Part shown: positions 28,320 to 52,593 of the stretch, piece by piece
Position numbering within the stretch: position 1 is the stretch's first letter
Layout of the letters: every line of letters starts with the position of its first letter
Translations under genes and position numbers: made by a program
The notes under the pieces: model-generated
Database searches by the model: none
The model's input: the letters and a program-made list of their open reading frames with translations, nothing else
What the model was told of the DNA's origin: nothing
Sequence record: MW822008.1
Length of the DNA stretch: 64,000 nucleotides
Strand: one strand, 5' to 3'
Origin: Escherichia phage BF17

Positions 28320-28330
28320 GATATAATAAA

Positions 28331-28358
28331 GGGACAGAGATTATTCTGTCCCTTTTCT
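28331..28358 (+). terminator. intrinsic terminator
   Basis: Perfect hairpin GGGACAGA-gattat-TCTGTCCC followed by TTTTCTT. Confidence 0.7.
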
Positions 28359-47025: not shown

Positions 47026-47053
47026 TTGACAAGCCTGAACGATGTGATATAAT
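47026..47053 (+). promoter_or_regulatory. strong sigma70-type promoter P2 (TTGACA-N16-TGnTATAAT)
   Basis: TTGACA 47026-47031; TGaTATAAT ending 47053; about 92 bp downstream of P1 with similar flanks. Confidence 0.6.
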
Positions 47054-47115
47054 GACCACATCAAGACGGCAAAGAGAAATGCCTTTTTAAATACATGGAT
47101 GATTCATGAAGTAAC

Positions 47116-47159
47116 AAAGGAACTGATAAGTTAAAAATTCTTTTAACACAGTTCCTTTA
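47116..47159. promoter_or_regulatory. perfect 10-bp inverted repeat (AAAGGAACTG ... CAGTTCCTTT)
   Basis: Arms at 47116-47125 and 47150-47159 with 24-nt spacer; overlaps the -35 of P3. Confidence 0.5.
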
Positions 47160-47184
47160 CTTTTGCCCACGGATTGGCTATAAT
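47156..47184 (+). promoter_or_regulatory. sigma70-type promoter P3 (TTTACT-N17-TATAAT)
   Basis: TTTACT 47156-47161; TATAAT 47179-47184; about 40 nt upstream of the ATPase ATG. Confidence 0.5.
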
Positions 47185-47224
47185 AGAAACCTAAACGATT
47201 TTATCCAACAAAAGGAAAATATAC

Positions 47225-48553
47225 ATGTCTACTCAAAACAACGATATCCTGAACGTAAAACTGACTCCTAAGAAAGCTAAAGAAGCAATGGCACTGGCTG
47301 ACATGATTCAAGATAGCCTGATGATTTGGGGTAGCCCTGGTATCGGTAAATCTGCTATCGCACGTCAATACGCTGATGAGAACTACCCACTGCGTAAAGA
47401 TAACGTGGCAAAAATTGAGTTCATGAAACAACAAATCGAAGCTGATACTGAAAATGCTGATCAACTTCGCCGTGAACTGGCAGCGTTTGAAGCCAAACTA
47501 ATCGACCAAGACACTAACTTTATCGATTTCCGTTTGTCTCAGATTGAACCAAGTGACCTTCGCGGTATTCCAGTTCCAGAGAAAGTGTTCCTTGATATGG
47601 ATGGTAAGCAACTGATTGAATCTGAACTGGCTAGTGCACAAGATTACATCGCTGAAACAGCAGTTGTGTGGGCAGCACCTAAAGTACTGAAACTGTCTCC
47701 AGATTGGAAAGGTGTTATTCTGTTTGACGAAATCAACTCTGCAATGCCGATTGTACAGGCAGCGTCTTATCAGCTAATCCTCGACCGTTGTGTTGGTGAG
47801 ATGAAGCTACCTAAGACTGCACTGATTCTCGCAGCAGGTAACCGTGAAACTGATGGCGGTGTAACGTTCTCTCTAGCTACACCACTGCGTGACCGTATGA
47901 CCCACATCGAAATGATTCCTTATCATCAAGATTGGATTAACGATTATGCGATTGGTAAGCGTTTGAACCCAGCAACTGTAGCGTTCATCAACAACACTGG
48001 TGCTAAACACTTCAACACCCTTAGCCCACAAGATCCTTCTCACTGTGGTGGTACTTCTCCACGTTCATGGGAAGCAGTAGCACGCTACGAAGATCTGAAG
48101 AAAGTTAAGAACATTGATAAAGAAGTGTTCCGTGCGATGATTGCAGGTCGTGTTGGTGAAGGCGTAGCAACTGAATACATCGAGTATGTTGATAACGTAG
48201 CTAAACTACCAGATACCATGTCCATCCTACAGGGTGAGATTAAAGAGATTGATGCTTCGCTTGATATTTCCGCGAACTACTTCATCACTCTGAATCTGGT
48301 TTACAAAATTATCGACCTCTACAATGAGAAGCAAGAACAACGTCTACCAGTGGAAGATTGGGGTAAGCTGTGCAACAACTTCATCACCTTCCTAGACCAT
48401 AACTTCTCTGCAACTCAAGCAGAACTGGCAGTACTGGCGATTCGTACCATCACGCTTCATAAAGTAGCGATTACGATTAAAGATGTACCAGCGTTTAAAG
48501 ACTTCGTTATGAAGTACTCTGACCTAGTACGTAAAGCACGCTCTCTTGGTTAA
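47225..48553 (+). CDS. AAA+ ATPase, MoxR-like
   Basis: Walker A GSPGIGKSAIA, Walker B VILFDEINSA, single AAA module of about 440 aa. Confidence 0.7.
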   Translation: MSTQNNDILNVKLTPKKAKEAMALADMIQDSLMIWGSPGIGKSAIARQYADENYPLRKDNVAKIEFMKQQIEADTENADQLRRELAAFEAKLIDQDTNFIDFRLSQIEPSDLRGIPVPEKVFLDMDGKQLIESELASAQDYIAETAVVWAAPKVLKLSPDWKGVILFDEINSAMPIVQAASYQLILDRCVGEMKLPKTALILAAGNRETDGGVTFSLATPLRDRMTHIEMIPYHQDWINDYAIGKRLNPATVAFINNTGAKHFNTLSPQDPSHCGGTSPRSWEAVARYEDLKKVKNIDKEVFRAMIAGRVGEGVATEYIEYVDNVAKLPDTMSILQGEIKEIDASLDISANYFITLNLVYKIIDLYNEKQEQRLPVEDWGKLCNNFITFLDHNFSATQAELAVLAIRTITLHKVAITIKDVPAFKDFVMKYSDLVRKARSLG

Positions 48554-48574
48554 TAATTAAAAAGAGTGTTGACA

Positions 48575-48605
48575 AGAAGGATACCACATGGTATCCTTCT
48601 TTTAT
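48575..48605 (+). terminator. intrinsic terminator
   Basis: Perfect 11-bp hairpin AGAAGGATACC-acat-GGTATCCTTCT followed by T-rich run; TTGACA hexamer directly upstream. Confidence 0.65.
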
Positions 48606-48628: not shown

Positions 48629-50038
48629 ATGTCAGATAAACGTTTCAGTGATGTTACTCCGGCTCTCCAGAAAGAATGTCAAGATCGTCTGATCTTAGCT
48701 CGCACATCTTTAATGCTAACATTCCCATTCTTTGGTGTACTGGCTTCTCGTCTGCGTCCAGTTGCAAACAATACATGGTGTCGTACTTTGGCAGTAGATG
48801 GTAAGCATTTATTCTACAACGTAGAATTCATCATGGGTATTCAGGACCAATCCAAAAAGACCGCATACGAAGAAGCAATTCGTGAGAAACATCCTGAAGT
48901 AACTGAAGAACAACTTAAAGAAATGACAGAAGGTTTGACTGATGAAAACCTGATTGCAGTTATCTGTCATGAGATTCTTCACTGTGCATATGACCACTTC
49001 TTGCGTCGTGGTATGCGTGACCCGCAGCGTTATAACCGTGCTGCTGACTATGCAATTAACCAGATTCTTGTTCGTGATAAAATTGGTAAAATCCAAAGCC
49101 AATGGCTGTACGATAAAAAGTACGATGGCATGACTGCTGAAGAGATTTATAACATTCTCGAAGAAGAAGATAAGCAGGATCAAGACGGAGAAGGTGAAGG
49201 TAACCCACAGGCTGGTAGTGGTGAGGGCGAAGGTAAATCACGTGGTACTTTTGGCGATATCAAAGATGGTAAAGGCAAAGGTACAACAATTGACCAGCAT
49301 GACGTTCCACAAGAAGGTCAAGAGGGTGGTTCAAGTGAGAAACAAAAACGTGATTATATGGATGATTTCAAAACAGCAATGATGAATGCTGCTCGTGCAG
49401 GTGGTACTCCTGCTGAAATCGCACGTATGATTAACAACTTCAAAGAACCAAAGATCGACTGGCGTTCTAAACTTCACCGCACGCTACGTAGCTGGTTGAA
49501 GTCTGACGCAACTTATCAAAGTCCTAATCGTCGTTCATGGGGTGCTGGTTTTGGTAGTACTGGTTCATTCTACGGGAATCCAATCTTCCCTGGCATGAAA
49601 CCTGATGATGATATTGATATTGCAATTGCACTAGATGCATCCGGTTCTATCTCTGAAGATATGCTCCGTGATTTCATCAGTGAAGTACTGGGTATCACTA
49701 AGCAGTTTAAACAATTTAAAATCCGTATCATGACGTTCGATACTGAAGTTTATACTGTAAAAGATTACAAAACTGGTGAAGAGAGTAAGATTCTTGAATA
49801 TCCAGTGAAAGGTGGTGGTGGTACTGACTTTGAAGCAGTATGGGTTCATATGAAGCATGACAACTATAAGCCAAAACAGCTTATTATGTTTACTGATGGT
49901 GAGCCGTGGCAGTCATGGGGCGATCCTGATTACTGTAAGACACTGTTTGTTATCCACAGTAATCCTAACAAACAAGCACCATTTGGTGAAACTGTACACT
50001 ACGAATATGAAGCTGACAAAAAGCGTCAACGTAGCTAA
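48629..50038 (+). CDS. VWA-domain protein with N-terminal HExxH metallopeptidase-like motif (DUF2201-like)
   Basis: HEILHCAYDH zinc-binding-like motif; MIDAS motif in DIAIALDASGSIS; immediately downstream of the MoxR-like ATPase. Confidence 0.65.
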   Translation: MSDKRFSDVTPALQKECQDRLILARTSLMLTFPFFGVLASRLRPVANNTWCRTLAVDGKHLFYNVEFIMGIQDQSKKTAYEEAIREKHPEVTEEQLKEMTEGLTDENLIAVICHEILHCAYDHFLRRGMRDPQRYNRAADYAINQILVRDKIGKIQSQWLYDKKYDGMTAEEIYNILEEEDKQDQDGEGEGNPQAGSGEGEGKSRGTFGDIKDGKGKGTTIDQHDVPQEGQEGGSSEKQKRDYMDDFKTAMMNAARAGGTPAEIARMINNFKEPKIDWRSKLHRTLRSWLKSDATYQSPNRRSWGAGFGSTGSFYGNPIFPGMKPDDDIDIAIALDASGSISEDMLRDFISEVLGITKQFKQFKIRIMTFDTEVYTVKDYKTGEESKILEYPVKGGGGTDFEAVWVHMKHDNYKPKQLIMFTDGEPWQSWGDPDYCKTLFVIHSNPNKQAPFGETVHYEYEADKKRQRS

Positions 50039-52562: not shown

Positions 52563-52569
52563 AAGAAAA

Positions 52570-52593
52570 GGGAGACATAAGTCTCCCTTTTTT
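52570..52593. terminator. bidirectional intrinsic terminator between convergent + and - blocks
   Basis: GGGAGAC-ataa-GTCTCCC flanked by A-run upstream and T-run downstream. Confidence 0.7.

Follow-up and report, generated by a model that had tools for sequence, protein, structure and literature searches.

In phage lambda, the pR' promoter is followed within 100-200 nt by the intrinsic terminator tR', and the short 6S RNA is produced unless the polymerase reads through under Q antitermination. In phage T4, transcription enters the middle genes in two ways, through elongation of early transcripts and through initiation at promoters that these genes possess themselves (PMC2988021). High-affinity sites for CsrA/RsmA consist of a short stem (about 5 bp or fewer) that presents an A(N)GGA(N) hexaloop, and in examples such as the glgC leader and hcnA a second site is located at the Shine-Dalgarno sequence (PMC7652899). 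The closest described elements are orthologous hairpins in two related phages: the GenBank record of G17 (MK327931) annotates a putative terminator called by ARNOLD (-9.2), and Table S8 of the CBB paper lists the rho-independent terminator Torf215 (-10.9) (PMC5259590). Both share with the element described here its locus (g307 homologue 5', ATPase gene 3'), a homologous stem and a U-run, but they stand as software predictions without comment, and neither source mentions an upstream promoter, the use of the U-run as a -35 element, or pairing across genera.

The element lies in a window of 64,000 nucleotides (the whole stretch of DNA analysed) from Escherichia phage BF17. Region 46500-48600 of this window matches the jumbo coliphages EC.P1, Ecwhy_1 and fEgEco12 at 99.9% identity and the 121Q/PBECO4/G17 group (Asteriusvirus) at 88%, with Klebsiella phage RaK2 more distant. 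The inverted repeat under study falls within a 316-nt gap (46909-47224) that has a late operon on its 5' side and an early/middle-looking operon on its 3' side, both on the + strand. In the fEgEco12 annotation, the upstream block encodes the tail sheath, the tail tube and other structural proteins and ends with g307, all on the + strand. The downstream block, likewise all on the + strand, encodes an AAA+ ATPase (N4 gp24-like), a DUF2201/VWA protein, several small ORFs and thymidylate synthase; the ATPase gene is annotated as N4 gp24-like in RaK2 and as MoxR-like in phiKp_21 and Turkey3. A Pfam scan of the g307 homologue found no domain, DNA-binding domains included, and the 'HdfR' label given to this homologue in fEgEco12 is therefore unsupported. 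The features of the locus are as follows.

46531-46908, + strand: g307 homologue, which closes the late (virion structural) operon on the 5' side
46934-46961, + strand: P1, sigma-70 consensus promoter (TTGACA, 16-nt spacer, TATAAT; 12 of 12 positions matched)
47026-47053, + strand: P2, second sigma-70 consensus promoter (12 of 12 positions matched, extended -10)
47093-47102, + strand: A-N-GGA motif in the P2 leader (ACATGGATGA), 14 nt upstream of the hairpin
47116-47158, + strand: predicted terminator/attenuator hairpin with an outer 10-bp stem (AAAGGAACTG/CAGTTCCTTT)
47156-47164, + strand: U-rich tract (UUUACUUUU), directly 3' of the G/C core of the stem
47156-47184, + strand: P3, promoter with TTTACT (47156-47161), a 17-nt spacer and TATAAT (47179-47184); 10 of 12 positions matched
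47165-47178, + strand: hairpin 2, GCC(C)A-CGGA-T(T)GGC (GCCCACGGATTGGC), inside the P3 spacer and right after the U-run
47210-47219, + strand: Shine-Dalgarno sequence of the ATPase gene (AAAAGGAAAA)
47225-48553, + strand: AAA+ ATPase gene, first gene of the operon 3' of the predicted terminator

P1 also carries a TG (extended -10) and an A-rich upstream tract, and together with P2 it forms a 55-nt direct repeat. A search for TTGACA-N11-TGTGNTATAAT allowing at most two mismatches returns P1 and P2 as the sole matches within the 64 kb, and no P2-type promoter-plus-leader cassette was found elsewhere in the window. P2 is kept in all Asteriusvirus relatives. The P3 -10 is kept in the Asteriusvirus relatives and in Hallingskeid, with TATCAT in RaK2, and no P3 equivalent is evident in the pEa50, Yen9, GAP32, CBB and XbC2 lineages. 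Judged from the -10 positions, transcription would start near 46968 (P1), 47060 (P2) and 47190 (P3). Several other motifs were considered in this segment and set aside. The conserved block in the P3 spacer, ACGGATTGG, does not behave as a general promoter motif (6 matches with at most one mismatch against 7 expected). The stem and loop rules of N4-type DNA hairpin promoters differ from what is present here; a TGCTT-like match to the T4 MotA box is misplaced relative to the -10 in RaK2 and Munch and is absent in the window; and a DnaA box was likewise discarded.

The arrangement parallels that of T4 in that strong sigma-70 early-type promoters lie upstream of a termination signal, a second promoter precedes the next block of genes, and two routes lead to one gene set. 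It differs in that the barriers discussed for T4 are mainly Rho-dependent whereas the terminator predicted here is intrinsic, and in that the second promoters of T4 need MotA/AsiA whereas P3 looks like a plain sigma-70 promoter in which no MotA box was identified. Similarly, the locus shares with lambda pR'-6S RNA-tR' a promoter followed by a terminator within 100-200 nt and a downstream operon that would be reached by read-through. Unlike in lambda, no Q-like or N-like factor and no qut or nut site was identified here, and the window lineage has a bypass promoter, P3.

The initial annotation had drawn attention to this gap through a perfect 10-bp inverted repeat. The repeat is present, and its left arm, AAAGGAACTG, occupies 47116-47125 as described. 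The right arm, CAGTTCCTTT, had been placed at 47150-47159 and actually lies one base to the left, at 47149-47158; the spacer, described as AT-rich and 24 nt long, is indeed AT-rich (87% A+T) but measures 23 nt. An overlap between the right arm and the P3 -35 does exist, limited to three nucleotides (TTT, 47156-47158). The spacer is itself structured, with a 7-bp inner stem (GTTAAAA, 47130-47136, paired with TTTTAAC, 47141-47147) closed by the loop ATTC. The full hairpin therefore consists of the outer 10-bp stem, a 4x1 internal loop, the inner 7-bp stem and the ATTC tetraloop. The RNA of segment 47105-47172 folds at -17.8 kcal/mol (z = -4.7; none of 200 shuffles is as stable), the hairpin alone at -14.6 kcal/mol, and GG/CC pairs adjoin the U-run, where seven of the nine nucleotides after the G/C core are U in the window. 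In the window lineage the minimum-energy fold reaches about 22 bp with internal loops.

A functionless repeat arising by chance in A+T-rich intergenic DNA is not an idle concern, given that about five perfect 10-bp repeat matches with spacers of 3-40 nt are expected at the composition of the window. The number actually seen is 22, against 4.9 +/- 2.9 in dinucleotide shuffles; these 22 matches represent about 15 distinct repeats, several of which are AAAGG...CCTTT hairpins followed by a T-run and hence terminator-like. For the repeat studied here we regard chance as having negligible probability, because the fold is far more stable than its shuffles (z = -4.7), the pairing is kept by compensatory changes across 22 sequences, and the hairpin is 93-98% conserved in close relatives with changes in the loop only. 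It is these comparative data that refute a chance origin. The same cannot be said of a second, smaller hairpin followed by a T-run that had been proposed just after P2. It comprises only 4 bp (GGCA, 47068-47071, with TGCC, 47080-47083, followed by T5 at 47084-47088), and the pairing is absent in G17, JNE01 and A4; G17, for example, has AGCA/TACC. We regard this small hairpin as a chance occurrence, unsupported as a feature.

The orthologous intergenic region was compared among relatives, 22 of them distinct, from at least five genera. The sequences were drawn from the Asteriusvirus relatives G17, ph0011, JNE01, A4 and CMSTMSU; RaK2, KP13-7, Salmonella phage Munch, Erwinia phage Hallingskeid and Escherichia phage EJP2; Erwinia phage pEa_SNUABM_50 (pEa50), Yersinia phage fHe-Yen9-03 (Yen9) and Cronobacter phage GAP32; Pectobacterium phage CBB, Xanthomonas phage XbC2 and Erwinia phage Kaldavass; and seven more distinct IMG/VR contigs. 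A hairpin followed by a T-rich run is found at the equivalent position in every relative compared. In all 16 GenBank relatives examined, the folding energy of the hairpin lies between -11.7 and -17.9 kcal/mol and six to eight of the 9 nt past the G/C core are U, and the T columns of the U-tract are invariant in the alignments. Within Asteriusvirus, all differences in the 43-nt hairpin are confined to the apical loop. Hairpin identity to G17, JNE01 and A4 is 93-98%, compared with 56-100%, mostly 71-89%, for upstream intergenic segments, and no other part of the intergenic region is conserved as consistently.

Beyond Asteriusvirus, it is the pairing that is conserved rather than the sequence. 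In a structure-fitted alignment of the 22 distinct sequences, 99.4% of the outer-stem cells are paired and both partners are substituted at three pairs (GC13/AU9, GC20/AU2 and CG16/AU5/GC1); in a plain MAFFT alignment, 91% are paired and two pairs are compensatory. These changes represent few independent events on the phage tree, all of them in the direction expected of a stem. RNAalifold, run on the plain MAFFT alignment, independently predicts the same 9-bp stem. For example, the GGAACTG/CAGTTCC of the window lacks one base in each arm in RaK2 (GGACTG/CAGTCC), and the corresponding arms are GGCACTG/CAGTGCC in Munch and pEa50, GACACTG/CAGTGTC in the sequences L022 and L024, and AGCACTG/CAGTGCT in GAP32, CBB and XbC2. 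Similarly, the top A-U pair is replaced by G-C in L033. The loop of the outer stem ranges from 6 nt (pEa50, GAP32, CBB) to 26 nt (EJP2), and the long-looped forms each carry an inner stem of their own. The apical loop is 4-6 nt in pEa50, Yen9, GAP32, CBB and XbC2, and pEa50 shows the canonical short-loop terminator form, AAGGCACTGA-GAAA-TCAGTGCCTT followed by CTCTTTTG.

These patterns bear directly on whether the repeat acts as DNA. It had been described as an operator-like dyad on P3, and a dimeric phage or host repressor bound to the two 10-bp half-sites could in principle occlude the P3 -35 or block elongation from P1 and P2; in favour of this, the dyad has no mismatch and does touch the -35, and the window contains somewhat more half-sites with at most one mismatch than expected (12 against 5.3). 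However, these additional matches lie dispersed, none of them forms a pair, and in sequence they look like purine-rich Shine-Dalgarno or coding stretches. A dimeric protein would require an operator whose half-sites keep both their sequence and their separation. In the relatives the half-sites vary while their complementarity is retained, and 6 to 26 nt separate the arms, with neither distance nor helical phase conserved. A search for the dyad elsewhere, as the initial annotation had suggested, found one copy per genome and no paired half-sites, both in the window and, by BLAST, in complete genomes of the clade. No Pfam DNA-binding domain is present in the gene next to it, and neither conserved half-sites at fixed spacing nor a cognate regulator gene nearby or further copies were found. 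The association with P3 is also not general: in EJP2 a P3-like promoter lies about 170 nt from the hairpin, and the GAP32, CBB, pEa50, Yen9 and XbC2 lineages keep the hairpin with no recognisable P3. Finally, an operator offers no function for a U-run that is conserved on just one side. Since the half-sites drift, the spacing varies more than fourfold and the T-run is conserved on one side, we reject the operator, which appears largely refuted by the comparative data and to which we assign only a slight residual probability.

We consider it probable that the repeat is the stem of a Rho-independent (intrinsic) terminator acting in the + strand RNA. This reading is supported by the stable fold, the covariation, the conserved U-run, the conserved position and the published predictions for the orthologue. 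Indeed, the stem-loop is stable and has G-C pairs near its base, a U-rich tract follows directly 3' on the strand of the flanking genes, and pairing rather than sequence is conserved. The further suggestion in the initial annotation, that the RNA from P1 and P2 would form a hairpin followed by U-rich sequence and serve as a terminator or attenuator, is thus well borne out by structure, covariation, the conserved U-run and position. In sequence terms the element is of a known kind, a conserved putative intrinsic terminator that was predicted before in two related genomes, and over the 75 nt that surround the hairpin the identity to G17 is 96%. The hairpin is unannotated in the window's own clade (fEgEco12, Ecwhy_1), which gives its recognition some value for annotation. 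The dyad would accordingly represent no new operator but a predicted terminator at the border between late structural genes and an ATPase and nucleotide-metabolism operon in a 375-kb coliphage, and it is relevant to the mapping of transcription units in RaK2/121Q-like phages.

The length of the hairpin raises a further possibility, that it serves RNA processing or stability as an RNase III-type site or as a protective 3' stem. RNase III substrates, such as the sites in the early region of phage T7, typically have about the length of the 22-bp fold with internal loops seen in the window lineage. In distant relatives, however, the stem is 9-13 bp with an apical loop of 4-6 nt, too short for such a substrate, and the U-run is retained; its conservation would be left unexplained. 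We therefore consider a processing site improbable, if marginally less so than an operator.

In the window lineage the predicted terminator departs from the strongest examples of its class. A short apical loop of about 3-8 nt on a continuous stem, which is a typical rather than strictly defining feature of terminators, is not present in the window, where the outer stem encloses 23 nt, and a generic terminator scan with a 3-8 nt loop limit makes no call at this hairpin. Only four of the ten outer pairs are G-C, the U-run is broken by AC, and the 23-nt spacer must form an A/U-rich inner stem, all of which is atypical for a strong terminator. Partial termination is plausible in the window lineage because the loop is long and structured, the pairs are A/U-rich, the U-run is interrupted and a simple scan misses the element. 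No 5'/3' end mapping or RNA-seq for Asteriusvirus, RaK2 or related phages was found in the searched literature; that termination occurs and with what efficiency, where transcripts start and whether read-through is regulated are matters of inference from the DNA.

As a terminator, the hairpin would stop late-operon transcripts at the border with the operon for the ATPase, the VWA-like (DUF2201) protein and thymidylate synthase. It is the first hairpin-plus-U-run after the stop codon of the g307 homologue and therefore the natural end of the late operon. Because P1 and P2 lie 5' of the hairpin, a share of their transcripts would also be stopped. The hairpin begins 56 nt past the predicted P2 start and 148 nt past the predicted P1 start, and the terminated RNAs would measure about 197 nt from P1 and about 105 nt from P2. 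The ATPase gene would be reached by P1 and P2 transcripts only through read-through, which amounts to attenuation, and the predicted terminator does have the position of an attenuator, 3' of a promoter and 5' of the gene that opens the operon. P3, by contrast, would start about 25 nt past the U-run and so escape the terminator, giving a transcript with a 5' UTR of about 35 nt that begins beyond both the terminator and hairpin 2. The DNA of the U-tract doubles as the P3 -35 hexamer (TTTACT, 47156-47161), an overlap that would reflect compact packing of terminator and promoter rather than an operator. At this border, two consensus promoters thus face a predicted terminator and a third re-uses its U-run as a -35.

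The order of promoter and hairpin is itself conserved. Every relative has a promoter in the stretch from the upstream stop codon to the hairpin, of the TTGACA/TATAAT kind in the E. coli and Klebsiella phages and of the TGAAACG...TGGTATAAT type in the GAP32, CBB, pEa50, Yen9 and XbC2 lineages. The latter type has been described for CBB and GAP32 (PMC5259590). That the order persists suggests that stopping transcripts close to their promoter is of use in its own right. In lineages without an evident P3, expression of the ATPase requires a terminator that leaks or is relieved. More generally, a consensus promoter placed just 5' of an efficient terminator would be odd, and either the terminator is leaky or regulated, or the short RNAs are the product. 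EJP2 shows a different layout: its P3-like promoter consists of TTGACT, a 17-nt spacer and TAAACT, and a P2-like promoter cassette lies 3' of the hairpin.

No relief device was found in the leader. When the P2 leader is folded in full, the minimum-energy structure retains the terminator hairpin and shows no competing antiterminator fold, and complementarity to the left arm, judged by eye, extends to only 5 bp (CCUUU/AAAGG). There is no conserved leader ORF, the AUG of a mini-ORF being lost in the 121Q-type phages, Yen9 and Munch. A permissive Rfam search of 46800-47300 returned sub-threshold noise only (best 23 bits against a gathering threshold of 60). Conserved A-N-GGA motifs flank the terminator on both sides and could be candidate sites for a factor.

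The alternative that the small RNAs are the main product, with P2 (about 105 nt) and P1 (about 197 nt) yielding abundant non-coding RNAs and attenuation of the ATPase operon being secondary, refines rather than replaces the terminator reading, since the hairpin would then act as terminator and as stabilising 3' stem-loop. The P1/P2 unit shares the layout of many bacterial sRNAs, in which a terminator with a U-tail follows a single-stranded 5' region. The only full-consensus extended -10 matches in the 64 kb (at most two mismatches) face the terminator, the promoter-then-terminator order is conserved across genera, with units of about 55-60 nt in pEa50 and GAP32, and the leader motifs TTAAGA, near +1, and A-N-GGA are kept in most examined relatives. 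Yet the leader diverges fast outside these motifs, it has no Rfam match (the best hit again scoring 23 bits against 60) and no similarity to E. coli genomes, and no transcript data for this phage group were found in the searched literature. The P2-like cassette 3' of the hairpin in EJP2 further indicates that such promoters can feed the ATPase gene directly. We consider it unlikely, though the least so of these alternatives, that the small RNAs are the main product. Host mimicry by the leader was also considered and dropped, as it has no matches in E. coli genomes.

Just downstream of the U-run lies a second conserved element, a putative RNA stem-loop. Hairpin 2 recurs across the relatives as a small stem-loop with covarying arms of 4-5 bp and a conserved A-N-GGA-U loop, and its GGA is invariant in 21-22 sequences. 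Variants include CAA[AYGGAU]UUG, CCAA[ACGGAU]UUGG and UCAG[AUGGAU]CUGA, as well as GCUU[AUGGAU]AAGC, GCUU[ACGGAA]AAGC and CUCA[AGGAU]UGAG. In a plain MAFFT alignment of 21 sequences, 84.9% of its cells are paired compared with 66.8% in shuffles (reached in none of 500), and its two central pairs occur as AU/CG/UA/UG and AU/GC/UA. The loop reads A-[C/U/A]-GGA-[U/A] in 20 of the 21, with G-U-GGA-U in Hallingskeid. In the window itself the stem has one C.U mismatch. The combination of a conserved loop with variable arms is, on the alignments, the signature of a putative RNA stem-loop read by a factor and not of palindromic DNA. Hairpin 2 would be confined to RNAs that read through the terminator, and transcripts from P3 would be without it.

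In its 4-5 bp stem and A-N-GGA-U loop, hairpin 2 has the stem-loop shape of a CsrA/RsmA site and resembles a candidate CsrA-like site. The window also has a second GGA within the Shine-Dalgarno sequence (47214-47216, 43 nt downstream), a feature shared with RaK2, Munch, Hallingskeid and EJP2. The likeness is incomplete, however, as the Shine-Dalgarno sequence has no GGA in the GAP32, CBB, XbC2 and pEa50 lineages and the C.U mismatch interrupts the stem in the window's own clade. Upstream of the terminator, a counterpart of the leader A-N-GGA occupies the equivalent position in the relatives examined, L033/L036 and EJP2 being the only exceptions. Taken in order, strong host-type promoter(s), an A-N-GGA, a terminator, an A-N-GGA-U stem-loop and the Shine-Dalgarno sequence would make up a conserved, factor-controlled leader module of RaK2/121Q-like jumbo phages, with the terminator hairpin at its centre.

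The promoter-before-terminator order together with the covarying GGA stem-loop hints at regulated read-through or short regulatory RNAs. In one such scheme, which we put forward as distinctly speculative, a GGA-binding protein would gate read-through or translation of the ATPase operon, or abundant terminated RNAs of about 105 and 197 nt would titrate it in the early phase of infection. The host global regulator CsrA would be the most plausible candidate for this role, a protein encoded by the phage being the alternative. Across the window as a whole, WCANGGANGW is not enriched (8 against 6.2 expected), and ANGGAN hexaloops on a 4-bp stem are unconvincing in number on the + strand (7 against 3.3 +/- 1.9). 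Searched with a covariance model that joins the terminator to hairpin 2, the window yields no further copy. The next matches, at 28325 and 32371, are other terminator-like hairpins followed by GGAG, which we read as the Shine-Dalgarno sequence of the next gene.

Directly 3' of the terminator U-run, and within the spacer of promoter P3, we find a small stem-loop with orthologues in L001-L033, the corresponding loci of related phages:

47165-47178, small stem-loop with GGA at 47171-47173

The arms of this stem-loop (4-5 bp) covary across the orthologues, and its A-N-GGA-U loop is kept in 20 out of 21 sequences, with Erwinia phage Hallingskeid carrying G-U-GGA-U. In shape, this candidate site matches a high-affinity CsrA/RsmA site. 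It is carried only by RNAs that read through the terminator.

An A-N-GGA motif is also found on the other side of the terminator, in the leader of promoter P2:

47093-47102, ACATGGATGA, matching WCANGGANGW

The 121Q-type phages have ACACGGATGA at this place, and A-N-GGA lies 10-20 nt 5' of the terminator in all of the examined relatives, except at loci L033 and L036 and in Escherichia phage EJP2. WCANGGANGW shows no overall enrichment across the window (8 occurrences versus 6.2 expected).

The two promoters upstream of the terminator lie in a tandem duplication:

46913-46967 and 47005-47059, 55-nt copies, 82% identical, containing P1 and P2

Besides TTGACA and an extended -10, each copy holds a UP-like tract rich in A and the initial bases of the transcript. 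With as many as two mismatches allowed, P1 and P2 are the sole sites in the 64 kb that fit a full-consensus pattern including an extended -10. Despite this uniqueness, both promoters are directed into the terminator.

The module is rearranged in EJP2 (locus L011):

L011 680-1003, rearranged module

Here, an extended -10 promoter is followed by the terminator hairpin, an inserted TTGACA/TATAAT promoter that shares the leader start CATCAAGACG with P2, a TTGACT-17-TAAACT promoter whose spacer holds the ACGGATT stem-loop, and the ATPase gene. This rearrangement shows that the P3-like promoter can be separated from the terminator.

Two further inverted repeats are found near the locus:

46979-47009, imperfect hairpin with 14-nt arms TTTTCAAAATCACA and TGTGAGATTGAAAA, roughly at +11 to +41 in RNA from P1
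46888-46920, inverted repeat with 13-nt arms (92% complementary), across the TAG (46906-46908) that ends the last late gene

The former, kept with some changes among Asteriusvirus relatives, precedes a run rich in A instead of T; the latter is likewise followed by A-rich sequence and has no terminator-like form on either strand.

Elsewhere in the window, the following hairpins and repeats are present:

28328-28355, 32374-32397, 34667-34697, 48574-48601, 52566-52591 and 61323-61347, canonical terminator-like hairpins (AAAGG...CCTTT plus T-run)
13233-13263 and 17014-17038, perfect 10-bp inverted repeats, fold energies about -15 kcal/mol

Neither perfect repeat is followed by a T-run; their predicted stems are 12 bp (extended) and 10 bp, respectively. 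Among the terminator-like hairpins, the T-run of 61323-61347 is weaker, an extended -10 promoter-like site lies directly 3' of 34667-34697, and 48574-48601 falls within a presumed operon, between the ATPase and DUF2201/VWA genes.

Public annotations of two neighboring genes appear to be wrong. The 125-aa protein encoded at 46531-46908, named 'transcriptional regulator HdfR' in the near-identical phage fEgEco12, has no Pfam match, and the gene at 48629-50038, labelled 'HNH endonuclease' or 'Zn-dependent hydrolase', encodes DUF2201_N and DUF2201 (VWA-like) domains.
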